The notes below the pieces were generated by a model. It was not told where the DNA came from. It worked only from the letters and a program-made list of their open reading frames with translations, and searched no databases. The position numbers and the translations under genes were made by a program. A stretch of 64,000 nucleotides of DNA. Source: a virus. Its lineage: Duplodnaviria; Caudoviricetes. Shown here one piece after another: positions 6,229-33,049 of the stretch. The stretch's first letter is position 1, and each line of letters opens with the position of its first letter. The stretch lies in IMG/VR virus record IMGVR_UViG_3300011116_001227. The stretch is one strand, 5' to 3'.

Positions 6229-6519
6229 TCATTCCTCTTTTTTTGAAACTCTGTCAGTCCAGCGTCTTCCAAAGTACAAAGATAGAATTGGAATCATATA
6301 CGCACTGCAAGCAGCTGTATCAAATGCTTTAAAAGATACCGTTCCAATGCTCTCAAATAATGACATTATGTAAGCACAAGTGGTAGCAAAAAAAGCAACT
6401 GTTGCAAATGTCGCTGTAATTGAGGGTTTGCCGTCTGTATTAAGAATCCAAATGTTAGAAGTTTTTTTAGCAGCTTTTACAGGCTTTTCGCGACTTTCTT
6501 TTTGTATTTCTTCGCTCAT
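6229..6519 (-). CDS. Small two-TM membrane protein, holin-like
   Basis: ATG at 6519 with GGAG SD; two hydrophobic segments (ITATFATVAFFATTCAYIMSLF; ACSAYMIPILSLYF), charged termini. Confidence 0.45.
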   Translation of the reverse strand: MSEEIQKESREKPVKAAKKTSNIWILNTDGKPSITATFATVAFFATTCAYIMSLFESIGTVSFKAFDTAACSAYMIPILSLYFGRRWTDRVSKKEE

Positions 6520-6554
6520 CGTAGAACTCCGCACACTAAATAGGCACCAATTTG

Positions 6555-9411: not shown

Positions 9412-9751
9412 AATTTTTCTCCAATTCGTCTTTTGAAACAAAGAAATCATTCGAACCGTCAGGATTACCATCGGGCGGCCTTAGGTCTACACCTCGAATA
9501 CTCACAGCAGTGACTGTATAAAGAACGCCACCCTGATCTTTATAGGTGTTAATTTCGTCCTTATCTTTGTCGTCCCTGACTTTACTTTTGATCTTTAAGC
9601 CTGGATCAAGCACAGATTTGTTCTTGCCGTCGACTTTGGTGTTGAAAGCAAGATCAACCTTTTCAGCAAGGGCAGATAATTTAGAATTCCACTCTTCCCG
9701 AATTAGTTTGATGAAGTCATTATCGTTTTTCTTCATTACGCAATTTCTCAA
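9398..9751 (-). CDS. Hypothetical protein (FIKLIREEW leader)
   Basis: 117-aa ORF overlapping neighbours. Confidence 0.55.
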   Translation of the reverse strand: MRNCVMKKNDNDFIKLIREEWNSKLSALAEKVDLAFNTKVDGKNKSVLDPGLKIKSKVRDDKDKDEINTYKDQGGVLYTVTAVSIRGVDLRPPDGNPDGSNDFFVSKDELEKNYVRD

Positions 9752-10194
9752 TCTGTAAGTATCAAGTCATTCAATCTAGTTACTTCTATCCCAGAATTTC
9801 TAAGTATCTTTAAACCTGACATGTCTCGATACTCAAAATCGTAAATTACGCTAGAAATATCAGCATTTACAATTAGTTTTGCACAAGAAACGCATGGGGC
9901 ATGCGTCAAGTACATAATTTTCTTTCTATTAAAATTATAATTACACTTTATTAAAGCATTAACTTCAGCATGAATCATGCCACTTTGCCCCGGCTGATCA
10001 CTTTCTGCTTCGTTTGGACCTCCTCTATAATTTCCGTTATAACCAAGAGACAAAAGACGAGTGTTGTCATCAGATACAACAATTGCGCCTACTTTTAGTC
10101 TGGGATCATAAGAACGCTCTGAAATATTCCAGGCAATCTTCATCCAGACCTGCGGCCAGGGTGGTCTTTTCATATTACTTTTCGCGTGTATCAA
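9748..10194 (-). CDS. dCMP deaminase
   Basis: HAEVNAL and PCVSC zinc-binding motifs, KVGAIVV, GYNG. Confidence 0.9.
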   Translation of the reverse strand: MIHAKSNMKRPPWPQVWMKIAWNISERSYDPRLKVGAIVVSDDNTRLLSLGYNGNYRGGPNEAESDQPGQSGMIHAEVNALIKCNYNFNRKKIMYLTHAPCVSCAKLIVNADISSVIYDFEYRDMSGLKILRNSGIEVTRLNDLILTD

Positions 10195-10747: not shown

Positions 10748-11710
10748 TCACTGCATCTTCTGCAACCAATCCCAATTGTCTTCATACCACTTTATTGTTT
10801 TATCTAGACCTTCCCAGACTTTTACTCTTGGATCATAACCTATCAATTCTTTGGCTTTTGTAATATCAGCCTTCGTGTTCTTGACGTCACCGATTCTCCA
10901 AGGCGCGTTATGAGAAATTGCTTTTGGATATTTTGACTTCAAGTAATTAAGAATCTGTAAATTTGTAACAACTTCGCCGACACCAACATTAATAATCTCA
11001 GCTTTGAGATCTTCTTTACAGAGCGCTGATTTAATAAGTGCATCGACAACATTATCAACATAACACATGTCTCTGGATTGCGATCCATCACCGTCAGAAC
11101 GCATTGACTTATTAGACTTTATTGCAGTCAACCAGGCACTGACTGCGGTCGAGTAAGGAGAAGTTCCTAATTGATTCGGACCAAATACGTTGAAGAATCT
11201 TAAGCATACAGAATCGAGACCGTACAGAGAATAAAACAGCTTTAGATAATTCTCAATTATCGCTTTTTGAAGTGCATAAGGAGATTGCGGATTATTGATC
11301 GCAGTCTCTGGTGTAGGAAGTATGTCTGTATTGCCGTAAGAAGATGAAGATGCAGCAAAAACAAATCTTTTGACTGTGCCTTTTGTTTTACATGCATTTA
11401 ATAACATGAGTGTCTTTGACACATTTGTATCATTTGTTTCTACAGGATGTTCTACAGAATAAGTCACTCTTGGATTTGCTGCCAGATGAAAAACATATTC
11501 GTATGCTCCTTCACTAATTCTCTTTAAGACTTCGGGCGATGCAAAATCTTCAACCCACAAGCGCTCTGACCTGAGGTCTACATGCAAAAATTGAGCATTA
11601 CCATTTGAGAGATCATCTACGACGTCGACATGCCACCCTCTCGCATGAAGTGCATTCGAAAGATTACTTCCAATAAAACCTGCGCCACCTGTAACAAGAA
11701 CTTTAGTCAT
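10748..11710 (-). CDS. NAD-dependent epimerase/dehydratase (extended SDR) 1
   Basis: VLVTGGAGFIG, ASSSSYG, YALQK (YxxxK), LRFFNVFGP; ATG at 11710 with GGAG SD. Confidence 0.9.
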   Translation of the reverse strand: MTKVLVTGGAGFIGSNLSNALHARGWHVDVVDDLSNGNAQFLHVDLRSERLWVEDFASPEVLKRISEGAYEYVFHLAANPRVTYSVEHPVETNDTNVSKTLMLLNACKTKGTVKRFVFAASSSSYGNTDILPTPETAINNPQSPYALQKAIIENYLKLFYSLYGLDSVCLRFFNVFGPNQLGTSPYSTAVSAWLTAIKSNKSMRSDGDGSQSRDMCYVDNVVDALIKSALCKEDLKAEIINVGVGEVVTNLQILNYLKSKYPKAISHNAPWRIGDVKNTKADITKAKELIGYDPRVKVWEGLDKTIKWYEDNWDWLQKMQ

Positions 11711-11731
11711 TCTCGACTCTCCAATTTCGCA

Positions 11732-11760
11732 ATTATAACACTCGTAAAAAATGCGTATAA
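11732..11760 (-). promoter_or_regulatory. sigma70-like promoter
   Basis: TTATAC-N17-TATAAT with TG extended -10, upstream of 11710. Confidence 0.55.
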
Positions 11761-11762
11761 GA

Positions 11763-12758
11763 TCAAGTCTTCTTCCAAAAAGAATACATGTTCTTCTCAA
11801 TCTCGTAATTCATGAGCTTGACTTCTCTCTTTGGCTGAGTCTTAGCCCATGTTATCATCTTATCGACGAGCTGCTCGAAATTTGTGTCGTCCTTAAAGTC
11901 TAGTTCTCTCTTTGCCTTAGAGTGATCACAATAAGCAATCTTCACTTCATCACGTGGCTCAAGATGAACAATCTTAACATCCAATCCGTGACGCTTAGCA
12001 ACAAGCTGAAAACGCTGAGCAGCTTCGAGGATAGAAACATGACTATCAGCACCAATATTGTAAATTTCGCCATCACCCATCACCATCAATTTTTCAAAAG
12101 GCTCCATGTAAAAATCGACATCAGAGAAAGATCTCATCTGCAAACCATCTCCGAAGATAGTCAGAGGTTGTCCAGATAAACTTTGTCTAATCCAGATGCC
12201 AATTACATTCCTGTATTTATCCCAAATATTCTGGTAAACCCCGAATACATTGTGCGGTCTTACAATGCTGTAATTCAAACCAAAAAATCTATTTGCTGCT
12301 ACTAGATCCTGCTCCACAGTATATTTCGCAATACCGTACGGATCTTCAGGCAATTGTCTTTGAGTCTCTACGAAAGGCGGTGTCTGTGTGCCGTACACGT
12401 CCATCGAACTTGCAAAAATCATCTTTTTAACACTGTTGTTTATGCAAGAATTAATCACGTTTGCAGATGCAACGACATTATTTAAATAGTTGTGATTTCT
12501 GATAAACGGACTTAATCCAACAGCTGCATAAGCAGCAAAGTGATAAACAAAATCAGGTTTCTCTGTCTGCATCATGTAATTAGTCAGTCGAAGATCTGTT
12601 AAATTACATTCATAGATCTGAACTGACTGGTGAACTAAATCTCTATAACCTCCACTAAAATCGTCGATTCCAATTACCTTGTGACCCTTTTTTATAAAGT
12701 GTCTCGACAAATGGTTTCCAAGTAAACCTGCAACGCCAGTGATAAGAATTTTTGACAT
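11763..12758 (-). CDS. NAD-dependent epimerase/dehydratase (extended SDR) 2
   Basis: ILITGVAGLLG, ASSMDVYG, YGIAK, RPHNVFG. Confidence 0.9.
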   Translation of the reverse strand: MSKILITGVAGLLGNHLSRHFIKKGHKVIGIDDFSGGYRDLVHQSVQIYECNLTDLRLTNYMMQTEKPDFVYHFAAYAAVGLSPFIRNHNYLNNVVASANVINSCINNSVKKMIFASSMDVYGTQTPPFVETQRQLPEDPYGIAKYTVEQDLVAANRFFGLNYSIVRPHNVFGVYQNIWDKYRNVIGIWIRQSLSGQPLTIFGDGLQMRSFSDVDFYMEPFEKLMVMGDGEIYNIGADSHVSILEAAQRFQLVAKRHGLDVKIVHLEPRDEVKIAYCDHSKAKRELDFKDDTNFEQLVDKMITWAKTQPKREVKLMNYEIEKNMYSFWKKT

Positions 12759-12781: not shown

Positions 12782-13693
12782 TCAAATAACGTCTTGTCTG
12801 ACATGTGCGCTATTTAAATTGACGACAAGCGAAATACTCTTTGCTGGCCATAGAAATTTTTTCGTAATAAAAGCAGCAAGATGTGCAAGAAATCTTGTGT
12901 CAATAGACCCGTTTTTTCGAACGTCCGTGCTTCTAAGTGTACAAACAACACTGACATTTTCATTACGGGGAAGAAAATGAATAGAAGAGATACAAGAATT
13001 ACTTGAATAATAAAAACGTCTGGACGAAAGGTCTTGAGGCAAGTTGTAAGGATTTTTACCTTCTAACTCGTTCTCTATGATTTCACAGCATTCTTTCATA
13101 ATACTGCTGTAATATTCACATTCATGTTTATTAAGCATGATCTCATCGTCGCTATAAGAAGGATCGATTGACATCTTGAATTTTAGCTGCTCCTCGTAAG
13201 AAAATAGACCAGACACCCAAGATGATGTCATGTTACCTACTTCTCCAGGCAAAGAATTCTCTTGTGATTTTAAACGATTTGCAACATAATCAGCTAGTTG
13301 ATCCGCAGATTCTGAATTTCTAATCACAAGAACATTCGGCATGTATTGCAGTTTAGATACTTCTTCATCAAATATTTGTCTTAACTTTACAACAGATGCA
13401 GCATCTTGAAATTCATCTCCTCGAGATGATAAACGATCGAGTAAAACATCTTCGGGCGGAATCAAGACGACAAAAAAGTTGTTGAGATCTGATAATTCTT
13501 CTCTCAAAAATTGTCTTTGCTTCTCTACGTCACGACCGTACTGTCTTGCATAACAAAGCATTGAAAGACAGGAACGATCTTGAATGTTGTAACTAAAATT
13601 TGTCGCTTTGTGAAGCTTGCTAATAAAAGTTGTTTTACCTGCTAGATCGGGACCTTCAACTAGCAGATAACGAATTGGAAGTTGTGTCTTCAT
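12782..13693 (-). CDS. dNMP kinase fused to truncated thymidylate-synthase-superfamily domain
   Basis: N-term EGPDLAGKTT P-loop and QDRS; C-term SRR, catalytic Cys (SCISSIHF) 20 aa before RSTD, Asp at the E. coli N177 position, and SAH. Confidence 0.7.
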   Translation of the reverse strand: MKTQLPIRYLLVEGPDLAGKTTFISKLHKATNFSYNIQDRSCLSMLCYARQYGRDVEKQRQFLREELSDLNNFFVVLIPPEDVLLDRLSSRGDEFQDAASVVKLRQIFDEEVSKLQYMPNVLVIRNSESADQLADYVANRLKSQENSLPGEVGNMTSSWVSGLFSYEEQLKFKMSIDPSYSDDEIMLNKHECEYYSSIMKECCEIIENELEGKNPYNLPQDLSSRRFYYSSNSCISSIHFLPRNENVSVVCTLRSTDVRKNGSIDTRFLAHLAAFITKKFLWPAKSISLVVNLNSAHVRQDVI

Positions 13694-13697
13694 AATC

Positions 13698-14174
13698 TTA
13701 AGAACGTAAGATCAATCTTACCAAGCTACGTACAAGATTTTCAAATTTCATCTGTTCGTAACCTTTATTTAAGGTAACAAGATAATCTTTTGAAACTTCT
13801 GACTTCTTTGGGTCGATACTAACATAAGCATAAGCTTCGTAACATCTTCCTTCGCAGTTCACAGTCACTCTAATTTTTTTATAATCTTGTTCAGCTGTTC
13901 TCTTATCAGCGTCTTCGAAACAATCTAAAGATTTTTCTTGTATTGGAGTTGTCTCATATAAGACGCCCTTCACAAAATGTCCTGGTGATTTAATTGCTGT
14001 TGCTCCGTGCCACGTCTTAGAATATCCCGTAAATCCAAGATTAAAGTTAGGCAATACAGCATTTCCGATTTTTTTTAAGTTTAAATCTGTAAAACCACAA
14101 GGAGGACCGGACTTCGCTCTCTTGTGAAGCAAGTCTTGGTCCATGTTGGCGCCATAAGCAAAGTAGAAAGACAT
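13698..14174 (-). CDS. Gamma-glutamylcyclotransferase (GGCT/AIG2-like) family protein
   Basis: YFAYGANM signature, VKGVLY, LDCFE. Confidence 0.8.
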   Translation of the reverse strand: MSFYFAYGANMDQDLLHKRAKSGPPCGFTDLNLKKIGNAVLPNFNLGFTGYSKTWHGATAIKSPGHFVKGVLYETTPIQEKSLDCFEDADKRTAEQDYKKIRVTVNCEGRCYEAYAYVSIDPKKSEVSKDYLVTLNKGYEQMKFENLVRSLVRLILRS

Positions 14175-14192: not shown

Positions 14193-17100
14193 TTATTCGA
14201 CTAAAGCTCTCATTTTATACACTGATGTAGAAAAACCCCAATTTGCATCGTTTGATGCTTGAGCTAACCACAATGTGTAAGGTTTGATTTCTTCTTTTGG
14301 TGTGCCCCATGCACGCAACCAAGCAGTCCTATGTTCATCATCGACGGCTTTAATTCGATAGAAGATCTTTCCATTTTTAGTCTTCTTCACCTGCACTTCT
14401 GCAGCGCAGAACCAACCAATACCTTCTGTCCCTGGTTCAATATCATGAAGTTTTGGAACTTGTTTTTCTGCAATCTTGGACATAACTGCAGGTGGAAACA
14501 AGAGATCTGAATCTACAGACTGTGTCAATTCTTGACACATCAGAATCTTTTCTTCACGCGACCAATCCTCAATTTCAGCAAGAGAAGCTAACGTCACATC
14601 AAGGAAAGCTTCAATCTTCTCACCAGCTTTAGCTTTCTTCTTGAGTTGTGATGCTGTCAATCCGTAAAGGCCTCTACGAAGCATCTCGTAATTTTTGTCA
14701 TCTGTTAATGCCAACAAAAGTTGCTTGTGATTATTAATTTTTCCGACGCTAAAATCTTCGAGCGATGACAATGCATCGATCTTGCAGAGTGCTGACAGAG
14801 CTGTCTTATTCATCTTGCTGTGGCGCCAATTACCTTCATTATCATACAACATCTCCTGGAGATTTTTGTAAGGACGAAGTTGCATGATCTCTTCGACTGC
14901 AGTCGAACCAATGCCCTTGACCGAGCTGAGGGGCGGAACGAAAGCGGCTGCTTCTTCAGAATACTGCCACTCTTTTCCTGAGTAGTTCACATCGATCTTA
15001 GAGAAACTGTAACCGAGCGCTTTGATCTCGGAGATAGTCTTAGCAAGACCTTTTGGATTTGTGTTCTCAGACTGCAGCGCCGTCGCGAGCCATTCTTTCT
15101 CGTAGTGGGTGTGGAGCCACGCAGCGTAGTAGGAGTCGATCGCATATGCTAAACTATGGGATTTATTGAAGCAATAGACTGACATGTTGTCAATTGTCTG
15201 CCAGAGCGGCTCTGTTACTTCAGGACCGACGCCGTGAATGCGCTGTGCACCTTCGATAAACTTCTGTTTCGCGATCTCTTTTTCGGACGTCTTCTTGTCC
15301 AAAGTGTCAAGAGACTTCTTGACAAGCGTCTTGCGTAGCTGATCTGCTTCACCCGGTGTGAAGCCTCCAAGCTTCTCAGCGAGTAACATAAATTGTTCCT
15401 GGTACACTACGAAATTCCTCGTCGGCCCTAGCACCTGTTCGATGATAGGGTGTGGATAATCGATGTGTTCTTTCTTCCTTGCCTCGACGAAAAGGTTGTG
15501 GACATTAGCTTTAAGTGGGCCAGGTCGATAGATCGCAGTGATGGCAGTCAAGTCTTCGATTTTCGTTGGCTTCACTGCTTTGCAGAACTTCCTCGCTCCC
15601 TCTGCTGTCATCTGAAACACAGAGACGAATGCTCCATCTTGGTAGACGTGCTTCCAGACAACAGGATCGTCCTGCTTCACATAACGACAGTTGAGGTGTT
15701 TGTCAAAGAATTCCCTAACGTCCAAGAAAGTAGGATTCGGATTGCCTTGCTTCACGAGGATCCGGCTGATGCAATTCTCCACGTCCTTGAGGAGAGTGAG
15801 ACCCAGGAAGTCGAACTTCAGGAAGCCGTTGTCCTCCAGGTTGCGGAAGTTCATGCCCTCCGTCCACGGTGTCTGAAGTTCACCTCGCACACCGATGATG
15901 GGCATATTCGCCGCGAGGTCGTCGGGATCGGCCAATAGAACGCCACCGGCGTGTCGACCCACCGATCGGTTCTGCATAAACAGGGTTTCGACGTGGGCAG
16001 CCACCTCTGGGTACTTCTCCATGAAGGCCGTGTACTTCGGCGAGTACTTCATGCAGTCCTCATGCTTCAGCACGAAGACCGACTTCTCCTGGTCCTCGTC
16101 TCGAGCCAGCGGCATCACCTCGTCCTGGAGAGGGCCGGTCATCTCGTTCACCTCCTCGAAGGGCACGCCGTAGATCTTGGCGATGTCCTTGACGAGGGAC
16201 TTGAGCTTCAGGGTGTTGAAGTTGGACACCGGGATCACGGCGTCATCGCCGAACAGAGTTCGTGCCGCATCGATAAGGACATCCCTGTCACCTGCGTCTG
16301 TATCGATATCCGGAAAGCTCACTCGGTGTCGTCCCAAAAATCTGCTCCAAAGCAAACCGTATGGTATCGGATCGATCTGCGTGATGCCTAACAGGAAGTT
16401 GACGAGCGATCCCGCACCACTCCCGCGGCCGCTTCCAAAGAGTGTCTTTTCCTTCGCAAGATTGAACACTTTATACATCGTAATGAAGTACGAAGCACAC
16501 TTCAAATACTTGATGTCACCGAGTTCGTATTTTGCTCTTTCCACATACGCAGGCTTGTCGTCTAAGCCTTCACGCTTCAGGCCCTCCATCACAAGCTCGG
16601 TAAGTTGCTTGAACGCAGATTTCTCAGGTGTGTCGACCTTCGGTAGCTTCGGTTTCGTGTCCACCCAGGTGTCTTCGCACTCGTTCCACGTGATGTCGTG
16701 GGTGCGTTCGATGGAGTCACGCACCAATTCTTCAGAACCCTTATAGAACTCGTACTGCTCGTAGGACCGCTTGTACTCATCCCACATCTGGGACGCGTTC
16801 TTTGGATATAGTTCGCACTTGAGGTCTTCGAACTTAGGCAGTGTTGCACCATCAAGTTTGGCACCCATCCAGCCGAGCTTCTTGTACAGCTCACGCGCTT
16901 GCCACTTTGAGGGATCTGGGTAGTGAGAATCACACGTGGAGACGAGCGGCACGCCTGTCTTCTTAGAAAGATCGATCAAGTACTTGTTGACTGTGTGTTG
17001 TTTCTCAAGCTTGTTGAACTGTAGCTCAAGATAAAAGTTTTTGTTGCCCACGGCGCTTTGGAATCTGTCAGTAAGATTCTCAAGATCTGTCATAATCTCG

Positions 17101-18227
17101 TCGTGCGGCTTATTCTGTGCTTCACCTAGAAGAATCTTGCCGCTGTAGATTCCGCCTAGACAGTTATGAACTACAACACCGTTCGCAAAGAAATTGTGGT
17201 TGTCTTCGACAGTAATATCGTAGACATCTTCTGTGTAGTCCAATTCTTCAACTTCGATCACGTCAACGAACTTGTAGGTTTCCATATTATTTTTCATCCA
17301 AGAAACAATCTTGACAGGCATGTTCTCCTTGAGCTCATCGGCACGAAGCCAGCCCTTGTCTGTCAAGACTTGATGGTCTGGTGTGAGTCTTACTTCTTTA
17401 CCATCAGCAGTCTTGAGCTTGACGATCTTTGCAGATGTCCTCGTCTTATCTCCCCACAAGACACGTTTGAACTGCAGTTCTTTGCTTTCTTCATTGAAGG
17501 AAAGAACTATGGGATTCTCCCCTGCCCTGTATCTCTCGATGACTCTTAGCAATGTCTCGGTACCCATGTCTGTTACAAGCTCAGCATCACCCGTAAGACA
17601 CGCCGTCGACCAGATGATGTCTGACCCGTATTTTTGGAGTAGCTCAAAGTCGATTCGAGGATAACGATAGAAGCCGTACTTGTAAGATGCCTTGACAAGT
17701 CTGAAGATGTTCGCAAGACCGTTCTGATTCTTAGCTACAGCAACAAGGTGATAGCGTCGTTGCCAGTCTCTGGATGACACGTCGACTGTCTTGGTTTCAT
17801 TCTCATCTTCAACGACGTGGCCGCCCTGTTCATCCTCTTCTTCGCCCGGATCGGCATCGATGTCTGTAGGAGTCTTGGCACGCTTCTCCATCTCAGCAGC
17901 AGTCTTTGCATCCTTAACGCTCTGCTTATGGGCTTCATAATCAATAGCCCACTGCTTCAGTGAGGGCACAAAGTAGAATTCCACACCGTAGAGCTGTCGA
18001 TACTTCTTGCCCTTCTTCTGTACCTTCAGAGCTGCAGATCGAGCATGTGCTAGACCGTTGCCATTACCATGATCTGTGAGTGCCCAGGCATCCATACCTT
18101 GTGACTCAGAGGTGACAAAGGCAATGTGATCGGCTGGATAGCCGAGTCCGTCGAAGGTGCTAAATCCGCTGTGGCCGTGGAAAGAAACAAATCTGTCAGG
18201 TGGGCGAATAAGATCTAATTTTGACAT
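14193..18227 (-). CDS. dnaE: DNA polymerase III alpha subunit (family C), intein-containing
   Basis: PHP domain (HGHSGFSTFDG, TDHG, DSHY), GRGSGAGSLV, PDIDTD, GRHAGGV, KFDFLGL, YRPGP, CFNKSH. Confidence 0.95.
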   Translation of the reverse strand: MSKLDLIRPPDRFVSFHGHSGFSTFDGLGYPADHIAFVTSESQGMDAWALTDHGNGNGLAHARSAALKVQKKGKKYRQLYGVEFYFVPSLKQWAIDYEAHKQSVKDAKTAAEMEKRAKTPTDIDADPGEEEDEQGGHVVEDENETKTVDVSSRDWQRRYHLVAVAKNQNGLANIFRLVKASYKYGFYRYPRIDFELLQKYGSDIIWSTACLTGDAELVTDMGTETLLRVIERYRAGENPIVLSFNEESKELQFKRVLWGDKTRTSAKIVKLKTADGKEVRLTPDHQVLTDKGWLRADELKENMPVKIVSWMKNNMETYKFVDVIEVEELDYTEDVYDITVEDNHNFFANGVVVHNCLGGIYSGKILLGEAQNKPHDEIMTDLENLTDRFQSAVGNKNFYLELQFNKLEKQHTVNKYLIDLSKKTGVPLVSTCDSHYPDPSKWQARELYKKLGWMGAKLDGATLPKFEDLKCELYPKNASQMWDEYKRSYEQYEFYKGSEELVRDSIERTHDITWNECEDTWVDTKPKLPKVDTPEKSAFKQLTELVMEGLKREGLDDKPAYVERAKYELGDIKYLKCASYFITMYKVFNLAKEKTLFGSGRGSGAGSLVNFLLGITQIDPIPYGLLWSRFLGRHRVSFPDIDTDAGDRDVLIDAARTLFGDDAVIPVSNFNTLKLKSLVKDIAKIYGVPFEEVNEMTGPLQDEVMPLARDEDQEKSVFVLKHEDCMKYSPKYTAFMEKYPEVAAHVETLFMQNRSVGRHAGGVLLADPDDLAANMPIIGVRGELQTPWTEGMNFRNLEDNGFLKFDFLGLTLLKDVENCISRILVKQGNPNPTFLDVREFFDKHLNCRYVKQDDPVVWKHVYQDGAFVSVFQMTAEGARKFCKAVKPTKIEDLTAITAIYRPGPLKANVHNLFVEARKKEHIDYPHPIIEQVLGPTRNFVVYQEQFMLLAEKLGGFTPGEADQLRKTLVKKSLDTLDKKTSEKEIAKQKFIEGAQRIHGVGPEVTEPLWQTIDNMSVYCFNKSHSLAYAIDSYYAAWLHTHYEKEWLATALQSENTNPKGLAKTISEIKALGYSFSKIDVNYSGKEWQYSEEAAAFVPPLSSVKGIGSTAVEEIMQLRPYKNLQEMLYDNEGNWRHSKMNKTALSALCKIDALSSLEDFSVGKINNHKQLLLALTDDKNYEMLRRGLYGLTASQLKKKAKAGEKIEAFLDVTLASLAEIEDWSREEKILMCQELTQSVDSDLLFPPAVMSKIAEKQVPKLHDIEPGTEGIGWFCAAEVQVKKTKNGKIFYRIKAVDDEHRTAWLRAWGTPKEEIKPYTLWLAQASNDANWGFSTSVYKMRALVE
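17163..17600 (-). mobile_element. Mini-intein (146 aa, no endonuclease) in DnaE PHP domain
   Basis: WSTA/CLTGDAELV ... LTPDHQVLT ... VYDITVEDNHNFFANGVVVHN/CLGG; removal restores the STACLGG PHP motif. Confidence 0.92.
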
Positions 18228-18272: not shown

Positions 18273-19265
18273 TCAAACTTTAGGGAAATGTTGCAGTAGA
18301 TCTGTACCTTTCGACTTAGCTTCATCGAGATACTTCAGAGGGTTATAGTTCTTAGATGAATTTGAAGAAATCCAATCGTAAGTCGCCTTGACGCCGCCCT
18401 CCAAGTCAAGCTTCGGAGACCAGCCAATTTGCTTTCTGACCTTGGCAGATGACAGTCTGTGGTTTCCGAGATAATCAGTCTTTGGATACCAGCGGACGAT
18501 TTTTTCTACGTTTTTCCCGACAACACGAGAAACAAGATTCATGATCTCTGCGGCGGTGTGAGGTGTCTCAGCTGCGACGTTAAAATCAGTACCCCAACCA
18601 TCCTTGCTCTCACAGATCATCGACACGGCTTCACAGTAATCGGACACGTGGAGATAATCCTTGATCTTCGCGGGGTCTAAGAAGATGTCAACAGAATCTT
18701 TGTTCTGCAAGGATGCATAGATACTCTTGGCGATGAGTGAATTCATGTCACCCTCGTCACCAAAAGCGAAGAGAGGACGCACCACAGACCAGCGTTTTGC
18801 CATGCTGGTGATGATCTGTTCACCTGCAAGCTTCTGCACGCCATAATAAGTGAGAGGCTTTCTAGCTGAGTCTTCAAAAATCTGCTGATTCTGGTAGGAA
18901 GGCGTGTCATAAATCACGGTGGTACCCATGTAGCACACGCCGGCACCAGCTGCGTTAGCTGCTCTAACAATATTGTAAGAACCGTGCACGTTGCTCAGCG
19001 TCGCTTCTGCGGGATTGAGAGCAACCACGTCTGTTCCCACAACGGCTGCATTGTGCACAACAACATCAACCCCGTATTTTTTAAAAGCTCTTGACCAAAC
19101 GTCTTCTGAATTTCGGTGCACACACACTTCACCCGTTTTTGGTAACGTAAGCATGTTGTCTCCAATTAGATCAGCATCCGATAGAATCGAGTGACCTCGA
19201 GCAATCAGCTTCTTCTTCAAATGTCTAGCAATAAATCCTGCACCACCCGTAATGTAAAAACGCAT
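18273..19265 (-). CDS. NAD-dependent epimerase/dehydratase (extended SDR) 3
   Basis: FYITGGAGFIA, HNAA, YGVQK; ATG at 19265 with GGAGG SD. Confidence 0.85.
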   Translation of the reverse strand: MRFYITGGAGFIARHLKKKLIARGHSILSDADLIGDNMLTLPKTGEVCVHRNSEDVWSRAFKKYGVDVVVHNAAVVGTDVVALNPAEATLSNVHGSYNIVRAANAAGAGVCYMGTTVIYDTPSYQNQQIFEDSARKPLTYYGVQKLAGEQIITSMAKRWSVVRPLFAFGDEGDMNSLIAKSIYASLQNKDSVDIFLDPAKIKDYLHVSDYCEAVSMICESKDGWGTDFNVAAETPHTAAEIMNLVSRVVGKNVEKIVRWYPKTDYLGNHRLSSAKVRKQIGWSPKLDLEGGVKATYDWISSNSSKNYNPLKYLDEAKSKGTDLLQHFPKV

Positions 19266-19365
19266 GTCTCCTCCGATGCAGAGCATTATAACAAAAAAAG
19301 CGACCAAATACAAGGTCACTTTTTTATAGATCTCGAGATTTTGAGAATGAATTACAAGCTAAAAA

Positions 19366-19940: not shown

Positions 19941-20414
19941 TCACTCAATTTCTTTGTCATACGGCTCGTAAAGCATCTCACCTTCAGACTTACAGCGTTC
20001 CAGGTAGTCCTCGAGCTCTTCAAAAGAAGTACACACACGCGAGCCTGATCTTGACAACATGAGATTAAACTTTGCTCCGGCAGGAAGTCCTGCGCAGAAA
20101 TAGATAATGTGCTTATCAAAAGCAGTGGCATATCCACATTCCATGATTGTGCCAAGATCCTTGTCACGTGTATTCACCACGAGAAAGTCGGCCTCGCGAA
20201 TGTGCTTTAGGTTCCCCTGATAGGTTGCATCTTGAACCTCTCGAGATGCATTAGGGGGACAGATAAAGATCCTTCGAGGAGACGCCATATCAATCCAGTC
20301 CTTGCGTGCCTCCATGATCTGCTCAAGTCTTGTAAGCTCTGCATCCTGTACAGGATTAAACCATCCGGCTGCAAGATACATCTTCAGAGTACGTCCAAAC
20401 TTATTCTCACTCAT
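19941..20414 (-). CDS. Nucleoside 2-deoxyribosyltransferase / 5'-NMP N-glycosidase (NDT, MilB, DNPH1-like)
   Basis: YLAAGWF, HIREAD, DLGTIMECGYA (catalytic Glu) motifs. Confidence 0.8.
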   Translation of the reverse strand: MSENKFGRTLKMYLAAGWFNPVQDAELTRLEQIMEARKDWIDMASPRRIFICPPNASREVQDATYQGNLKHIREADFLVVNTRDKDLGTIMECGYATAFDKHIIYFCAGLPAGAKFNLMLSRSGSRVCTSFEELEDYLERCKSEGEMLYEPYDKEIE

Positions 20415-20444
20415 TATTGTGTCCTTTCAATCGCTCGATTTCTA

Positions 20445-20473
20445 ATAGTAGACTATACTTGTCAATTGAACAA
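20445..20473 (-). promoter_or_regulatory. sigma70-like promoter
   Basis: TTGTTC-N17-TACTAT upstream of 20414. Confidence 0.5.
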
Positions 20474-20528
20474 GAATCAGATTTCGCGATGTTTTCATGC
20501 AATTAGTACTAAATAGTACTAGACAAGT

Positions 20529-21509
20529 TCACTTGTTTGACTTCCAGTTATTGTGCTCAGACTTGAGCTTATCAAACTCAGAAATACCTGAATTCCAATG
20601 CTGAAGGAACTTTCTCTGTGGGCCATCTCCGTGAGTACCATTTAGCTCTTCGCGGGTGCACTGGTAGATTGTATCCTCGGGATGGTACTCGAACTTATCA
20701 TTCTTTGGAATGGGCCAGTATAGGTTTGTGCCGCGGGACACGAACTTATCACCCTCCTTCACGCGGAAGGTCTTGATGTAGTGCATGTCGGGCTTGTTGA
20801 AGTCCACCATCGTGGTGAACTCCGGAATAACCTTGGCAACCTCGACTGCCATTCTTACCGCAAGCAGGTTGTCACTAGATGTTTGAATTTGAGAATCTTG
20901 ACGCTGATAAATGAAGCCCACCAGGTCCTTGAGCGAAAGACGCATATAGTAGAACGAGGTCATGCACTTAGGAAGAATGAGTCGTGCGTCCATCATAGAC
21001 ACGACCTTGGAATCAGTCATATCAGCGTAGAGCTGCTTGGACTCTTCGACAAGCTTCTTCCATCTCGCCAAGAACTCAGGTGAATTCTCTACGGGCTCAG
21101 GAATGACTGCATCGTCGTCGCGGAGGTCGCGATCGCCGGTGCACTGTGCAGCAAAAGTGCCAGCACGGTGGCGGATGATGTGTGTCACCTCTTGGAAAGA
21201 CATACCGCTCAGACGGAATGTGAAACCGAGACATTCCATGGGAGCCGGAAGTGTTCGTCCACCAAAGACGTCCTCCAGGTTCTTAGACAGATCATGATCT
21301 GATGCTGACTCGGGATGGATGTCAGGTCTATCTGCCCAAGTTGCCTTAACATAATGCCAAGCCACGTTCCAAGCTTGCTGTCGCGTCGGATGGTCGACAA
21401 GCTCGATCTTTAGTGCATCGATGTTGTTGAGGAAGTTGGTCTTGACTGGTCGTCCGAACTTTAATTCCATGGGTAGTTCAATCGGCTGTAGGTCTTTATT
21501 AATGGGCAT
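20529..21509 (-). CDS. Divergent flavin-dependent thymidylate synthase (ThyX)-like protein
   Basis: ME..FTFRLSG.S...HIIRHR, DARLILP and FIYQR motifs; catalytic RHR-x7-S appears as RHRAGTFAAQC. Confidence 0.75.
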   Translation of the reverse strand: MPINKDLQPIELPMELKFGRPVKTNFLNNIDALKIELVDHPTRQQAWNVAWHYVKATWADRPDIHPESASDHDLSKNLEDVFGGRTLPAPMECLGFTFRLSGMSFQEVTHIIRHRAGTFAAQCTGDRDLRDDDAVIPEPVENSPEFLARWKKLVEESKQLYADMTDSKVVSMMDARLILPKCMTSFYYMRLSLKDLVGFIYQRQDSQIQTSSDNLLAVRMAVEVAKVIPEFTTMVDFNKPDMHYIKTFRVKEGDKFVSRGTNLYWPIPKNDKFEYHPEDTIYQCTREELNGTHGDGPQRKFLQHWNSGISEFDKLKSEHNNWKSNK

Positions 21510-21581: not shown

Positions 21582-22523
21582 TCAAAGAATATGGGCAATC
21601 TTATCGATTACGTCTTCATTTTCTTCGACGTAGATAATTCCTCTAACATTTTTTACTTCTTCGTTGTATGATTTTTTAGGAACTACGCATATGACGCCGT
21701 GCTTTGCGTATTCTGACGCATGTTTAGCTGAATCATCTACAGCAAATAATTTTGCAGTCTTATAGAAGTCTTGTCCCGCGAGCCAAGCAAATTTTTCTGG
21801 CGTGAATACTACGTCATCTGCAGGAATCTTGTTGAGGTGCAGCCACGCGTATGTATCGTAAAAGCAAGTTAGATTTTGTGAATCTCTTGCTGTAACTATC
21901 TGCACCCAGTATCCCTTCTGTTTTAAAGCAATTAAGAAGTTGTAGTACTTCTTGCTGAGCTCTAGACGCAAAAATCCATGGTCTTCGATGAATTTCTTAA
22001 AAAAGAATTCGCTGTTTAAACCATGCTCTTTAAACTTCACTGTGTTGTAATATTCTGGACAATACGGGTCCATGAATATTCCTGTTTGATCTGTAACATA
22101 TTTACAGAATTCATTTCTAAACTCTGCCAACACATCGTCGATGTCAAACAAAACGATGGGTTCTCCTGACCACTTCTTGTCTCGAAGTTGGTGTCTGTAA
22201 TGAAGATAATGATCTTTCTGTTCAAGAGCTGACGTCAATTGTTCTGAAGTAAGATTCCATAAATTTGCAATTGCCAAGATGTAACGATACGCGTCAGCAG
22301 ACTTATACAAGATCTTTTGCAGATCTGTTTCTCTTGCTTCTCTGCGATGTTCTTTGTAGTTGACAGCACTGCACAAATCTGTAATCTCGGAGTGAAGTGC
22401 AAGACTTAAAGTTTTAAACTCTTCGATCTTCTGTTCGTCAGTTAACTCAGATGAATTATAAAAGTAATTTGAAAAAGTCTTTTGCGTTCTCAACGCATCA
22501 ACAAGGTAATTCCAGTTAGACAT
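21582..22523 (-). CDS. All-alpha NTP pyrophosphatase (MazG/dUTPase-like, degenerate) fused to HAD 5'-nucleotidase
   Basis: N-term ALHSEITDL...YKSADAYRY; C-term FDIDDVL (DxD), VTAR, AVDDS. Confidence 0.7.
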   Translation of the reverse strand: MSNWNYLVDALRTQKTFSNYFYNSSELTDEQKIEEFKTLSLALHSEITDLCSAVNYKEHRREARETDLQKILYKSADAYRYILAIANLWNLTSEQLTSALEQKDHYLHYRHQLRDKKWSGEPIVLFDIDDVLAEFRNEFCKYVTDQTGIFMDPYCPEYYNTVKFKEHGLNSEFFFKKFIEDHGFLRLELSKKYYNFLIALKQKGYWVQIVTARDSQNLTCFYDTYAWLHLNKIPADDVVFTPEKFAWLAGQDFYKTAKLFAVDDSAKHASEYAKHGVICVVPKKSYNEEVKNVRGIIYVEENEDVIDKIAHIL

Positions 22524-22526: not shown

Positions 22527-22892
22527 TCAATAACCGCTCTTTAGACGCTGAACATTAATTGCACCCTTCTTCATAAAAGCTTCGTGCAATTCTTCAGAAG
22601 AAATTCCACTATAAATGACGATGCCAAAGAAGTAGTGTAATGCGTCTACGAGCTCTTCTTTGTAAGATTCTCTATCGAATTCTTTGACTTCTGTCACGCG
22701 ATGATTCTTGCTGTTCTTCAAGAGATGATTAGCTTCAAAAAGCTCGTGCATACATTCGTGAGCTAATCCTTTTAAAATTTGTTGATTCTTCTTTTCTTTT
22801 AAATCGAGAGGAAAATCCGGGTAACCTCTATCGTCCCTTAACAAATAATTAAAGTCACGTTGTTGATTGTACATCTCATCAAGTTTATCCAT
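22527..22892 (-). CDS. All-alpha NTP pyrophosphatase (dimeric dUTPase/dCTPase, MazG-like)
   Basis: HECMHELFEA...KEELVDALHYF acidic metal-binding motifs; ATG at 22892 with GAGG SD. Confidence 0.8.
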   Translation of the reverse strand: MDKLDEMYNQQRDFNYLLRDDRGYPDFPLDLKEKKNQQILKGLAHECMHELFEANHLLKNSKNHRVTEVKEFDRESYKEELVDALHYFFGIVIYSGISSEELHEAFMKKGAINVQRLKSGY

Positions 22893-22966
22893 GCAAACCT
22901 CTTGTGTTATTTTAAACCCGACAACACTCAAAGTACAATACAAGTTGATTATAATAATTACAAATT

Positions 22967-23491
22967 ATGAAAAAGAACGAATTCAAAAAGCTGCTAGAGA
23001 TATTCGGAGAACCTATTGGTAGGTACGCAGGCGATGCTCCCGAAGGCGTAAGAAATGAGCCTGTCATTTGTCCTGTCTGCAAAATGATGTTTGTAGACAA
23101 AAAATGCGGCTGCGAAGACTCGAACGACGTATGTCCAACGTGCGGCATGATGCCAGTTGACGGCAAATGCGGATGTGTCAAAGAATCAGTTGAAAACACT
23201 TCTTGCTCTTGCCACGAATCAGACGAAATAAATAAAGAACCCTGCGAGGAGTGCGGCTTAATTGAATTTAATCCACAACCAGAACCTCCCGGTGTAGATA
23301 AAGATTCAGATAAAATAAGTGAAAGTAAAAAGAAGAAGGGTCCAAGCAAGAAAACTGCAAAGAAAATTCTTCGTGGAACAAAGACCTTTGCACAAAAAAT
23401 GAAAAAAGTTTCAGGTTGGGCAGAAGATCCAGCAGCTGCTGCAGCATGGATGATGCATAAGGCTACAGGGAAATGGCCTTCAGAAAAATGA
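22967..23491 (+). CDS. Cysteine-rich (12 Cys) protein with basic C-terminus
   Basis: CPVC..CGC, CPTC..CGC, CSC, CEEC; ATAATTAC motif upstream on the + strand; coherent protein-like composition. Confidence 0.65.
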   Translation: MKKNEFKKLLEIFGEPIGRYAGDAPEGVRNEPVICPVCKMMFVDKKCGCEDSNDVCPTCGMMPVDGKCGCVKESVENTSCSCHESDEINKEPCEECGLIEFNPQPEPPGVDKDSDKISESKKKKGPSKKTAKKILRGTKTFAQKMKKVSGWAEDPAAAAAWMMHKATGKWPSEK

Positions 23492-23503
23492 TTTAATTAC
23501 GCC

Positions 23504-24148
23504 TCATTTACCATGGGGCTTATTTTCTTGAACACCTTGTGGGGTCACTGTGACAAATCTAGCCTTACCCCGCAACTCCCTGATGGTCCGGGCTCCTGAA
23601 TAGGATAACCCGGACCGAATTCCGTCTAGCATCTCTGTTATCGTTGTCCTCATGGATCCCTTGTAAGAAATCATTGTCGATTCACCTTCGACGACTGAAA
23701 CACGGCCTCTCCAACTCATCTGAGCTTCCTTCGAAGCCATGCCTCGGAACTTCTTAAACAATGGAACACCGGCATGAGGCTTGGTCTTATATGTCATGCC
23801 CTTTTCATCCACAAGCTCACCTGGGGATTCATCATGACCGGCAAGGATCGAACCTAACATGAGCATGTCGGCTCCGGCTGCCAAAGCCTTTACAGCATCT
23901 CCGCTATTCCTAATTCCACCGTCAGCAATAAGGTAGACATCCCTATCTGACTTGCCACAATCCATCACAGACTGCAGGGTTGGAATTCCATGTCCTGTAC
24001 GGATCCGAGTAGAACACATGGAATTGTGAACAACATATCCTTCTGCAACATATGAGCTATTGTCTTCAACAGTAAGGTCATGAACTTTATGACCTTCACT
24101 ATGGAATGTTTCAACACTTTTGACAGAATGCAGTTTGAATTTTTTCAT
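23504..24148 (-). CDS. guaB: C-intein + C-terminal half of IMP dehydrogenase/GMP reductase
   Basis: 42-aa IntC ending VVHN followed by SMCSTR, IADGGI, GSILAG, FRGMAS, VEGES, GLSYSGA. Confidence 0.9.
   Translation of the reverse strand: MKKFKLHSVKSVETFHSEGHKVHDLTVEDNSSYVAEGYVVHNSMCSTRIRTGHGIPTLQSVMDCGKSDRDVYLIADGGIRNSGDAVKALAAGADMLMLGSILAGHDESPGELVDEKGMTYKTKPHAGVPLFKKFRGMASKEAQMSWRGRVSVVEGESTMISYKGSMRTTITEMLDGIRSGLSYSGARTIRELRGKARFVTVTPQGVQENKPHGK
24023..24148 (-). mobile_element. Split intein C-fragment (42 aa)
   Basis: MKKFKLHSVKSVETFHSEGHKVHDLTVEDNSSYVAEGYVVHN/S. Confidence 0.9.
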
Positions 24149-25217
24149 ATGTTTCTTTTATCAGTTGAATTGCTTTTTCAAAATCAACTTTTCTCAGTTT
24201 ATCTTCTTTTATTCTAACAAGATGATATCCATTGTTCATTGCAATCTTGTTTTTTATAAGATCTGTTTTTCCATCAGATTTTTCTTTGTGAAAATAATAA
24301 CCATCATACTCAACAAGAAGCTTTTCACCGACCAAAATATCAAAAACCCTACCCCGGAGAGGGAATTGGCTTTTTACATTATCATTTCCAAATTCGTCAA
24401 CACACATTTGGAAAAGTTTAAGCTCTGGTGCAGAAATAACTTTTTCATATTTTCCTTTTAAGAAAATATCTTTTATTTCTTGTTTCGATTTAATGCCATG
24501 ATATAAAGCTAACTTTTTTAATGTTCTTACATCAATTCCACAGTCTTTCTTTAAGTCTGCAACTCCATATCCAAATTTAGAGTTTTTTGAGTAACACTCA
24601 AGTAGATTACAAATCTTCTCTTTTGTCAACCCAACCTCTTCATATTTTTTGATGGTCAAAAATTTATGATTTTTAGCATGCCAATCCTTACGGCTTTTAT
24701 TAGCTTTTTCTATAGACTCTTTAGAATGTTTTTTTCCATAAAATCCATTCTTCGAACCCATACAAACATCACTCATGTTTTTTGAATAATTGTCTTTAAT
24801 TTTTTCAAATTCTTCTTGAGAATATTTCTCTTTCCAAATTTCCTGGATCGGCTTTCCATACATCGGGTTTTTATTACCCGAATATTTCTCAGATCTGCTT
24901 TTTTTATAATCTTTTAGCCAGTCAGGATCAACACTTTCTGACCATTTTTTGCCATAAAACGGATTTTTTTCTCCAATTTTATTACAACTCTGACATGACC
25001 AACTTTTAGTATACAAAAATGTGTTAAAAAATTTTCTTGATTCTTTTAGTTTATCACATTGAACACAAAAAATTTGATAACACGAAATTTGTTTCTTGTC
25101 AAACTTTTTTTGACATTCCGTAATAAAAAAACATTTTCTTCCTTGTTTTTCTAGTCCGACAACTCTATATTGATTATCTCCAACAAAAACTATTCTTTTT
25201 GAAAATTCTTGGTGCAT
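24111..25217 (-). CDS. Free-standing homing endonuclease (NUMOD3 repeats + Vsr/DUF559-like nuclease)
   Basis: NPFYGKK, NPMYGK, NGFYGKKHS repeats; C-term SAPE..FDI..VEYDGYYFH..D..KN....GY.LVRI; AT-rich. Confidence 0.85.
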   Translation of the reverse strand: MHQEFSKRIVFVGDNQYRVVGLEKQGRKCFFITECQKKFDKKQISCYQIFCVQCDKLKESRKFFNTFLYTKSWSCQSCNKIGEKNPFYGKKWSESVDPDWLKDYKKSRSEKYSGNKNPMYGKPIQEIWKEKYSQEEFEKIKDNYSKNMSDVCMGSKNGFYGKKHSKESIEKANKSRKDWHAKNHKFLTIKKYEEVGLTKEKICNLLECYSKNSKFGYGVADLKKDCGIDVRTLKKLALYHGIKSKQEIKDIFLKGKYEKVISAPELKLFQMCVDEFGNDNVKSQFPLRGRVFDILVGEKLLVEYDGYYFHKEKSDGKTDLIKNKIAMNNGYHLVRIKEDKLRKVDFEKAIQLIKETYEKIQTAFCQKC

Positions 25218-25250
25218 AAGGTTTCACCCCCTATGCCTAAATATATCGAA

Positions 25251-26153
25251 TCAAATAATCTCTACTAAGGAATAGTTTTCATTTAAATCGGCAGCAGGAA
25301 TCCATTTCGCGAATTCATGAATATTTTCATCATTGACATTGGGAATATCTTTGTTTTCAACCACATATATTTCATGATTTAGAGTACATGTTAATGAATT
25401 GTTAATCTTTACAAGAAGATCTGCAAAAGGTCTTTCAAAAAGATTGATTACTTCTTTTACTTCACCTGTGTGAGTTAAAACAGAGTCACCAACTTTCACA
25501 GTCTCAATTGATTTTTTCGTACCATCGGACATAGTAATTGAAGTTCCAGGAATAAAACACCCGCCCCCGACACCGACGCGGATCGATGAAGAACCCCAAT
25601 CAGCAAGGTCATTGAATGCCTCCAGGGTAGCAACGTTTCCGGTCATGATGTGAATATCATTCCCGAACTTGTTCCTCATCAACGTCAATGCAGATTTCAC
25701 GGATGAATGATGGCCGTGGGCGACATCAATACAGAAAGCTTGACATCCGACGTTGTGAAGAGCAGTGGCCCTTTCTAGAAAATCTCCAGTTGCACCAACG
25801 GCAATCATAACATTTGGAATCATTCTTTCAGGTGTCACCCTTAACTCGTTGACCTTGAGGAATGCCTTGACCGCTTCATCGATCGTACAATACCGATGAA
25901 GAATACCAAAGCCACCCAACTCATCAAGCAGAGCGGCGGCAGTTGGACCTATGACAGTATCCATCGGAGATCCTACGATCGGACAAGAAAGAACTGGGTG
26001 TGTCGGGGTCAGGCTTGCCGTGGTCTCATCTAGGCCGGTAACACTAAGATTCACATTTGAACGTGTCTCAATATCAGAATACTGAGGAGTCAAAAGGACA
26101 TCATCAAAACAGAGAGTTCGCTGCATGCCTCGATCGTACTCCAAAAGAGGCAT
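25251..26153 (-). CDS. guaB: N-terminal half of IMP dehydrogenase/GMP reductase (no CBS domains) + N-intein
   Basis: FDDVLLTP, SPMDTV, GILHR, IDVAHGH, GNVAT, IRVGVGGG then CFIPGT. Confidence 0.9.
   Translation of the reverse strand: MPLLEYDRGMQRTLCFDDVLLTPQYSDIETRSNVNLSVTGLDETTASLTPTHPVLSCPIVGSPMDTVIGPTAAALLDELGGFGILHRYCTIDEAVKAFLKVNELRVTPERMIPNVMIAVGATGDFLERATALHNVGCQAFCIDVAHGHHSSVKSALTLMRNKFGNDIHIMTGNVATLEAFNDLADWGSSSIRVGVGGGCFIPGTSITMSDGTKKSIETVKVGDSVLTHTGEVKEVINLFERPFADLLVKINNSLTCTLNHEIYVVENKDIPNVNDENIHEFAKWIPAADLNENYSLVEII
25254..25559 (-). mobile_element. Split intein N-fragment (102 aa)
   Basis: GGG/CFIPGTSITMSDG..KSIE.VKVGDSVLT...TCTLNHEIYV...WIPAADL, ends at a stop codon. Confidence 0.9.
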
Positions 26154-32455: not shown

Positions 32456-33049
32456 TCAATGTCTTGGCAAAATTTTATTCAATTGCAAGGTCTTTTGAAT
32501 CTGTCGAGCAATTATTTTTTTATCATTATTACAATTAACTAAGCTTGCTCTTTCATAATTTTCAAATGCCCATCTAGCGTACTCGATTCGAACTTTTTGT
32601 TGTAGTTCTGAGTCGGATTCATAAGAATCTTCAGCTTCGTGAGAGTGCGATTTTCCGTGTAAGATTATTGTGTAATCAGGCTCTCTCAGACGCTTAGCTA
32701 ATTCAAGTGTATATTCTTTGGAAACACCTTCAGCAGCACCATACACAACTGTAGACAAGCTCCATCGATCCATGATAATGTAGTCGTAATACCTTTCCAG
32801 AGCTGACAAAGTAAACATCTGAAAAAACTTTCTATTAAGAAACTGAAACCACTGGAAGATTTTTGGAAACTTTTTCGCAAGGCCATTCTTAAGCATCCAA
32901 TAGATGATCCGATAAGTTACTGCGGATCTAATTGGCACCTCTACCACAGCTGCACACAATCCAGTCCTAGCAATGTATTCCTGAAGAAGTCTTGTTTGTG
33001 TAAATTTCCCTACTCTATCTGGTCCTTCAACTACAATTATCTTGCTCAT
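32456..33049 (-). CDS. tmk: Thymidylate kinase
   Basis: EGPDRVGKFTQ P-loop, MDRWSLST, PDYTIIL. Confidence 0.85.
   Translation of the reverse strand: MSKIIVVEGPDRVGKFTQTRLLQEYIARTGLCAAVVEVPIRSAVTYRIIYWMLKNGLAKKFPKIFQWFQFLNRKFFQMFTLSALERYYDYIIMDRWSLSTVVYGAAEGVSKEYTLELAKRLREPDYTIILHGKSHSHEAEDSYESDSELQQKVRIEYARWAFENYERASLVNCNNDKKIIARQIQKTLQLNKILPRH

Follow-up and report, generated by a model that had tools for sequence, protein, structure and literature searches.

The gene at positions 20529–21509 (minus strand) of a 64,000-nt stretch of freshwater phage DNA (IMGVR_UViG_3300011116_001227; hereafter the window) codes for a protein related to the flavin-dependent thymidylate synthase ThyX. Sequence comparisons indicate that this ThyX-like protein is not a decayed ThyX copy but a member of a conserved family, a real and widespread ThyX variant in which the flavin-binding site (an RHR motif and a Glu) and the nucleotide-binding arginines are kept, while the residues corresponding to H53, R90 and Y91 of ThyX are replaced together throughout. 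The reading we favour, to which a probability of about 0.55 is assigned, is that of a neofunctionalised ThyX-fold flavoenzyme making a non-thymine, C5-substituted pyrimidine deoxynucleoside monophosphate (dNMP) for phage DNA. The window contains two ThyX-type genes:

20529–21509, minus strand: ThyX-like flavoenzyme paralog, 326 residues; ThyX core at about residues 30–233, followed by a conserved C-terminal extension of about 90 residues; signature residues L87, E92, R113-H-R115, C123-T-G-D126-R127, R176 and R203
33046–33705, minus strand: canonical ThyX, used as the comparator; the canonical thymidylate kinase (Tmk) gene at 32456–33049 lies directly downstream of it

The ThyX-like protein has a ThyX fold and two terminal extensions

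The start codon of the 20529–21509 open reading frame (ORF) corresponds to a Met conserved in the family. The encoded protein matched the Pfam Thy1 model (PF02511) with 60.2 bits over residues 67–230 (cut-off 24.8). With TIGR02170, the ThyX equivalog model, it scored 33.7 bits, below the cut-off of 87.9. An AlphaFold2 model based on 70 sequences of the family had a mean pLDDT of 95.2 and a pTM of 0.91; when compared with the PDB using Foldseek, it matched ThyX and PolB alone (TM scores of 0.65–0.77 over some 220 aligned columns). The protein had originally been predicted, from the letters of the window, to be a ThyX, with the lack of a ThyX fold named as grounds for giving up the idea. The Thy1 score and the structural matches agree with that assignment, and the fold is present in the model. 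The C-terminal extension of about 90 residues noted at the same time proved to be real: the ThyX domain extends to about residue 233, the residues beyond it are confidently folded in the model (pLDDT ∼95), and they include the conserved positions P266 (in 93% of the members of the 70-sequence alignment), Y264 and Y282. The N-terminal extension comprises about 20–35 residues.

Active-site residues are replaced in a coordinated manner

Residues were mapped by aligning both the single protein and the family profile with the ThyX proteins of Thermotoga maritima, Mycobacterium tuberculosis and Corynebacterium glutamicum. Where canonical ThyX has RHR-x7-S-x-R-Y, the ThyX-like protein reads R113-H-R-A-G-T-F-A-A-Q-C123-T-G-D126-R. 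The correspondence with T. maritima ThyX, and the conservation found among 70 diverse family members in a single alignment, were as follows:

R113-H114-R115: T. maritima R78-H79-R80; R113 conserved in 100% of members and R115 in 93%
E92: Glu58; conserved in 89%
R176: Arg147; conserved in 99%
R203: Arg174; conserved in 99%
Y161: conserved in 99%
L87: His53; Leu in 86% of members (60 of 70), His in none
C123: Ser88; Cys in 71%; in the others Ser, Gly, Thr or Ala, with a His often coming next
G125: Arg90; Gly or Ala in 89%, Arg in none
D126: Tyr91; Asp or Glu in 81%, Tyr in none

The rewired RHR-x7-C-T-G-D-R loop pointed out in the original prediction is therefore a conserved property of the family. 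The same prediction regarded the canonical AQxEIR motif as degenerate, which turned out to be incorrect: the family has at this region a conserved alternative, R-x-D-x-Q-I-Q-P-x-S-D-N, with no sign of decay. Compared with ThyX (also known as flavin-dependent thymidylate synthase or FDTS, EC 2.1.1.148; T. maritima TM0449, M. tuberculosis Rv2754c), the protein shares the fold, the Thy1 match, the RHR motif and the equivalents of Glu58, R147 and R174. It departs from ThyX, however, in its TIGR02170 score, in the Ser88-x-Arg90-Tyr91 motif (Cys for Ser88, and Gly and Asp for R90 and Y91), in having Leu for H53, in the QIQPxSDN motif and in both extensions.

The replaced residues have well-defined roles. 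In ThyX, Ser88, Arg90 and Tyr91 are strictly conserved and help the hydroxyl group of the flavin carbinolamine to leave during methylene transfer; mutation of Tyr91 makes flavin oxidation about 1000-fold slower, and a hydrogen bond between H53 and Y91 acts as the gate of the folate site (PMC11940539, PMC8316439). Arg174, which is kept, activates dUMP and polarises its uracil (PMC8316439). The two retained arginines, R147 and R174, between them hold the pyrimidine nucleotide and polarise it. The top PDB sequence match of the ThyX-like protein was the structure of the T. maritima S88C mutant. Ser88 is the ThyX residue nearest to C6 of the substrate, and the presence of a Cys at this position suggests covalent catalysis of the ThyA/TrmFO type.

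In large phages the ThyX-like gene is retained together with a canonical ThyX

The other ThyX of the window, at 33046, had been said to keep the SARY sequence, and it does: its motif is K-H-R...S-A-R-Y, it has a His in the H53 column and both arginines (R147 and R174 columns), and it scored 122.8 bits with Thy1 and 111.2 bits with TIGR02170. The two ThyX-type proteins are about 26% identical over 128 residues. In each of four related virus records of 200–284 kb, of which one has a completeness rating of 100%, a single canonical ThyX (129–174 bits) is accompanied by a single ThyX-like gene (66–70 bits); no ThyA was found in these four. Counting the window, canonical ThyX and the paralog coexist in all five large genomes examined, the paralogs being about 67–82% identical. 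That both copies have been kept over such substantial divergence argues for non-redundant roles. Within the window, the conventional set formed by the ThyX-Tmk pair (32456–33705), ribonucleotide reductase and a trimeric dUTPase lies apart from the module that contains the ThyX-like gene.

In several relatives (L066, L068, L071, L084, L090 and others), the ThyX-like gene has a ‘canonical’ ThyX of about 233 residues less than 10 kb away. In a quick tree these proteins formed a tight clade far from the canonical ThyX of the window (branch lengths of about 1.8–1.9), so that the lineage may have swapped its canonical ThyX type.

A diverse and essentially viral family

A word-indexed search retrieved 1073 related proteins, the best 120 of which were 77–92% identical to the window protein; nearly all were metagenomic, some being encoded on contigs of 100–313 kb. 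An exhaustive search of 1.84 billion representatives yielded 332 clusters at E ≤ 1e-3, of which 122 reached ≤ 1e-10 and 44 reached ≤ 1e-30; this indicates that the family is diverse yet clearly apart from the bulk of ThyX. Matches in the ESM Atlas were limited to the protein's own viral clusters, labelled ‘FAD-dependent thymidylate synthase’. A phylogeny including canonical ThyX had been proposed along with the original prediction. In a quick maximum-likelihood tree with a small canonical sample, the window protein fell within a clade of 48 rows (SH-aLRT 100), and a branch with 97% support separated all family matches from the sampled canonical phage ThyX.

Among 185,579 species genomes, the family was present on only four contigs of metagenome-assembled genomes (MAGs), assigned to a Methanobrevibacter from deer gut, a Clostridia bacterium, a Bacillales bacterium and a Methanobacteriota archaeon; this makes the family essentially viral. 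Of 50,697 cultured-phage records, searched by tblastn using the window protein and two distant family members as queries, Geobacillus phage GR1 alone had a full-length member (46% identity). A megablast search with 20 kb of the window found no match in the phage collection. The family is abundant in viromes from rivers, lakes and other aquatic habitats, and phages of the gut and of thermophiles have it too. One metatranscriptome contained just two 151-nt contigs, which covered the neighbouring HAD gene at a depth of 2.

Two further observations concern the gene itself. One metagenomic relative (P0146, 515 residues) carries a C-terminal HNH / His-Me homing-endonuclease domain, a fusion suggesting that mobile endonucleases target the ThyX-like gene. 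In addition, the junction of the ThyX-like gene with the NDT-like gene downstream of it (20017–20553 of the window) differs in a contig from one lake metagenome: the 535 bases from the 3′-end of the former to the end of the latter are replaced there by 1417 others. The population includes a variant in which this junction carries an insertion or replacement.

Genes linked to the ThyX-like gene

In the direction of transcription, the order of genes in the window is MazG-like, NTP-PPase-HAD, ThyX-like, NDT-like, NDP-sugar SDR (short-chain dehydrogenase/reductase), DnaE with an intein, GGCT, kinase-mini-TS, two SDRs, TK and dCMP deaminase. The components relevant here are:

22527–22943, minus strand: MazG / dimeric-dUTPase-type (T4 gp56-like) NTP pyrophosphohydrolase, 138 residues (PF08761, 28.6 bits; phrog_12184)
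21582–22523, minus strand: N-terminal all-alpha NTP-pyrophosphatase (PPase)-like region plus HAD 5′(3′)-deoxyribonucleotidase (NT5C; PF06941, 26.3 bits, residues 122–294), 313 residues; directly upstream of the ThyX-like gene
19941–20414, minus strand: nucleoside 2-deoxyribosyltransferase (NDT) / dNMP N-glycosidase-like protein, 157 residues; directly downstream of the ThyX-like gene (PF05014, 50.8 bits; PDB matches to NDT and DNPH1; catalytic Glu kept in G-T-I-M-E-C-G)
18273–19319, minus strand: NDP-sugar epimerase/dehydratase (extended SDR; PF01370, 100 bits), between the NDT-like and DnaE genes
14193–18227, minus strand: DnaE-type replicative polymerase with an intein, flanking the module
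13698–14174: gamma-glutamylcyclotransferase (GGCT)
12782–13693, minus strand: small P-loop (Tmk-like) kinase (residues ∼9–148) fused to a mini thymidylate synthase (TS)-like domain
9748–10194, minus strand: dCMP deaminase, a likely supplier of dUMP

The hidden Markov models (HMMs) of the NTP-PPase-HAD protein and of the MazG-like protein match the same small ORFs in distant loci. Pairwise BLAST between the N-terminus of the HAD protein and the MazG-like protein gave no significant match; the link between the two comes from the HMM cross-matches. A complex predicted for the ThyX-like and NDT-like proteins scored 0.00 in a run without controls, and counts neither for nor against an interaction. 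No glycosyltransferase was found in Pfam scans of ten further window ORFs. As for DnaE, its intein (Intein_splicing domain, residues 235–355) is inserted in the PHP domain, and in relatives the gene is divided into several ORFs around inteins.

The constancy of these neighbours was analysed in two sets of loci: 80 near loci from IMG/VR, belonging to one lineage and with 55–89% identity to the ThyX-like protein, and ten distant loci (30–46% identity) from phages with PolB-type or DnaE-type DNA polymerases, GR1 included. The NDT-like gene was the most constant neighbour, present in 77 of the 80 near loci (directly downstream or overlapping in most) and in seven of the ten distant ones, the other three being short contigs. 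A MazG-like gene was found upstream in 73 near loci, and in six distant ones. The HAD protein was encoded in 67 near loci, always directly upstream. The SDR and DnaE genes were located downstream in 57 and 49 near loci, respectively, and the SDR was absent from all ten distant loci. A small P-loop kinase of about 145 residues, homologous to the N-terminal domain of the 12782–13693 protein, was detected by HMM in nine of the ten distant loci, usually adjacent to the ThyX-like gene; in the window, it lies 7 kb away as a fusion. The window kinase domain matched the kinase of locus L005 (BLASTP E-value 2e-9), and the kinase neighbour in L002 matched the Tmk Pfam model (PF02223) with 33.4 bits. The NDT-like, small kinase and MazG-like partners are thus linked irrespective of the polymerase type, and mononucleotides are what all the enzymes of the conserved set act on. 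In L005 the place of the HAD nucleotidase is taken by a YfbR-type HD 5′-deoxynucleotidase, and an HD protein is also present in the GR1 block. A dCMP deaminase homolog adjoins the module in L008 and L097, so that this linkage is seen in three lineages overall.

The original prediction had the enzyme feeding a modification pathway. A conserved nucleotide-pool module set apart from the canonical ThyX-Tmk pair is in line with this idea; the members found on contigs from gut and other anaerobic settings make hydroxylation, one of the chemistries then proposed, less likely as a function common to the family.

Some loci also link the family to glycosylation. The GR1 member has the full signature (L-P...E-T, RHR-x7-C-T-G-D-R and QIQPKSDN), and its gene is directly preceded by one for a nitroreductase-type flavin reductase and has a glycosyltransferase gene in the same block. 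Protein P0145 is a family member that carries a GT2 domain at its N-terminus; scanned alone, this part scored 23.8 bits (cut-off 23.3). In L009 a Nucleotid_trans glycosyltransferase is encoded two genes downstream of the ThyX-like gene. In GR1 (L001; regions 11286–11885 and 23306–24538), the flavin reductase gene upstream is accompanied, about 10 kb downstream of the ThyX-like gene, by genes for an amidoligase and a gamma-glutamylcyclotransferase.

A proposed pathway to a modified pyrimidine

A ThyX-like enzyme travelling with its own kinase and with nucleotide-clearing enzymes makes an altered DNA pyrimidine probable. The substrate is probably a pyrimidine dNMP, namely dUMP, because the R174 equivalent is conserved in 99% of members and dCMP deaminase is linked in three lineages. 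In the pathway envisaged, the MazG/gp56-like pyrophosphatases and dCMP deaminase would supply the dNMP, most likely dUMP. The ThyX-like enzyme would stack it on the reduced flavin and add to C5 a substituent whose final form is not a methyl group, with Cys123 possibly acting at C6. The dedicated small Tmk-like kinase would then phosphorylate the product for use by the polymerase, while the NTP-PPase-HAD nucleotidase and the NDT-like glycosidase would clear the competing canonical nucleotide or by-products. Sugars might be added later, as hinted at by the SDR genes of the window and by the glycosyltransferase fusion and neighbours found elsewhere. As to the product, our best guess, held with low confidence, is that a one-carbon unit is left at the hydroxymethyl level (a 5-hydroxymethyl-dUMP type of compound).

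A very unlikely variant is that the enzyme has given up folate. The flavin N5 would in this case activate another aldehyde, the 2-deoxyribose 5-phosphate that the NDT/DNPH1-like glycosidase releases from a dNMP, and dUMP would be reductively alkylated at C5 with this phosphorylated chain of five carbons. If true, it would provide the first step, long sought, towards the (phospho)hydroxypentyl-uracil linkers of the SP-15/Carin-5 type, which later bear sugars, and it would explain the constant company of a glycosidase, a nucleotidase and a dedicated kinase.

Several points weigh against a modified-pyrimidine pathway as favoured here, or against parts of it. The equivalent of Cys123 is missing from 29% of the members, and Cys is therefore not an indispensable nucleophile family-wide. 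The Leu in the H53 column could still stack a pterin, in which case folate use would possibly have been kept. In the 80 near loci, linkage mostly reflects a gene order shared by descent, which leaves the ten distant loci as the independent events. Phages for which no base modification is known also have NDT-like genes and nucleotidases. The phage DNA assembles well from Illumina data of at least nine independent metagenome studies of rivers, lakes and other waters, which argues against a very bulky, polymerase-blocking modification. A literature search, with many subscription journals outside its reach, found no publication on the family and no characterised member. Finally, in the complete 79-kb genome of GR1 the ThyX-like gene is the only ThyX/ThyA homolog, and no canonical Tmk was found there; the ThyX-like enzyme and the small kinase could simply constitute the dTMP/dTDP route of that phage.

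Alternative functions

The situation in GR1 leads to the alternative we take most seriously, even if we consider it rather improbable: a divergent but genuine flavin-dependent dTMP synthase in which a Cys/Asp/Arg loop would do the work of Ser/Arg/Tyr, with the small kinase serving as its thymidylate kinase. The large phages would then have two thymidylate synthases, this second one being regulated or reduced differently. Besides GR1, the ThyX-like gene is the sole Thy1 match on the four MAG contigs (26–94 kb). The arginines binding FAD and dUMP are kept, the small kinase is Tmk-like, and the S88C form of T. maritima ThyX, a solved structure, is the closest PDB entry in sequence. A dTMP synthase is, however, difficult to reconcile with the family-wide loss of H53, R90 and Y91, given the importance of these residues (PMC11940539), with a score far under the ThyX equivalog cut-off, with long retention beside a canonical ThyX-Tmk pair in five of five large genomes, or with the fusion of one member to a glycosyltransferase domain.

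An O2-dependent flavin hydroxylase forming 5-hydroxy-dUMP or 5-hydroxy-dCMP, which would feed glycosylation, appears unlikely as an explanation for the family. It would be the ThyX-fold counterpart of the ThyA homologs of RB69 and DLP3, which make 5-hydroxy-dCMP with flavin and O2 (PMC13326640) and provide a precedent for it. The flavin reductase gene directly upstream in GR1, the glycosyltransferase fusion and neighbours, and the loss of the folate-gating His and Tyr would all fit. Against it, O2 should be scarce for the members on the deer-gut Methanobrevibacter, Clostridia and Methanobacteriota MAG contigs, and no oxygenase-specific feature can be read in the sequence; by analogy, hydroxylation is possible for aerobic lineages. 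Even slimmer are the chances of specificity for cytosine, with the ThyX fold serving as a C5-methylase or hydroxymethylase of dCMP, Cys123 as the C6 nucleophile and Asp126 handling N3/N4. ThyA-type and DNA m5C enzymes use a Cys as C6 nucleophile and handle N3/N4 likewise. The replacement of Ser and Tyr by Cys and Asp in the substrate loop, the gp56-like dCTPase/dUTPase-type pyrophosphatase in the module, and a linked dNMP kinase, as in T4 and RB69, are consistent with such specificity. The near-invariant equivalent of R174, a residue that polarises uracil (PMC8316439), is not, nor is the linkage to dCMP deaminase, a dUMP supplier, in three lineages; moreover, the Cys is not present in all members.

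Comparison with known systems

To our knowledge, all phage pathways that pre-modify pyrimidine nucleotides (to hydroxymethylcytosine, hydroxymethyluracil, 5-methylcytosine or 5-hydroxycytosine) use ThyA-fold enzymes. If the pathway proposed above is correct, a ThyX-fold enzyme would mean that modified DNA bases evolved by a second route, independent of the first, possibly with new flavin chemistry, through assistance by Cys or a carbon donor other than folate. The logic of the proposed pathway resembles that of T4 gp56-gp42-gp1 and of RB69 gp48 with its dNMP kinase, in which an NTP pyrophosphatase, a TS-family C5 enzyme (a ThyA-fold dCMP hydroxymethylase or 5-hydroxy-dCMP synthase) and a dedicated dNMP kinase are followed by later glycosylation (PMC13326640). 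Two of these features, the dNMP kinase (nine of ten distant loci) and the NTP pyrophosphatase (73/80 near and 6/10 distant loci), are found linked here. Unlike in T4 and RB69, the central enzyme has a ThyX fold, unrelated to that of ThyA, and is constantly accompanied by an NDT-like enzyme and a nucleotidase.

PolB, a UMP/dUMP C5-methylase of polyoxin biosynthesis (PDB 4P5A/4P5B), is structurally as similar to the ThyX-like model as ThyX is (TM scores of 0.72–0.74). It is the only characterised neofunctionalised ThyX-fold enzyme that we know of. There is no special closeness in sequence (profile E-value 7.7e-10, in the C-terminal half only). The reaction catalysed by PolB is still a reductive methylation, and its source is an antibiotic cluster of bacteria, whereas the family described here is from phages.

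In Bacillus phage SP-15, dihydroxypentyluracil partly takes the place of thymine, and thymine hypermodification has been established by experiment (PMC5977210, PMC13697223). SP-15 (L096) likewise contains a canonical ThyX and a divergent Thy1 protein, gp130, encoded near an NDT gene. Its block at 3730–6911, similar in make-up to the module of the window, codes for gp127 (a long NDT-like protein), gp129 (an SDR reductase) and gp130 (413 residues). The possibility that gp130 belongs to the same subfamily was considered and rejected: hhalign gave a probability of 4%, and the family profile matched only the canonical ThyX of SP-15.

Members of the ThyX-like family are routinely annotated as ‘thymidylate synthase’, and widespread DNA modification may be hidden behind this label. 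The availability of cultured GR1 makes the question of a modified base directly testable.

Other observations in the window

An IMPDH/GMP-reductase-family gene at 23504–26153 is divided into N- and C-terminal halves carrying Hint/intein pieces, with an ORF for a NUMOD3/Vsr-like endonuclease (24111–25217) between them. The same minus-strand gene train that contains the ThyX-like gene also codes for a Fe/Mn superoxide dismutase C-terminal-domain protein (8683–9471) and a carbon-nitrogen hydrolase (3834–4592).

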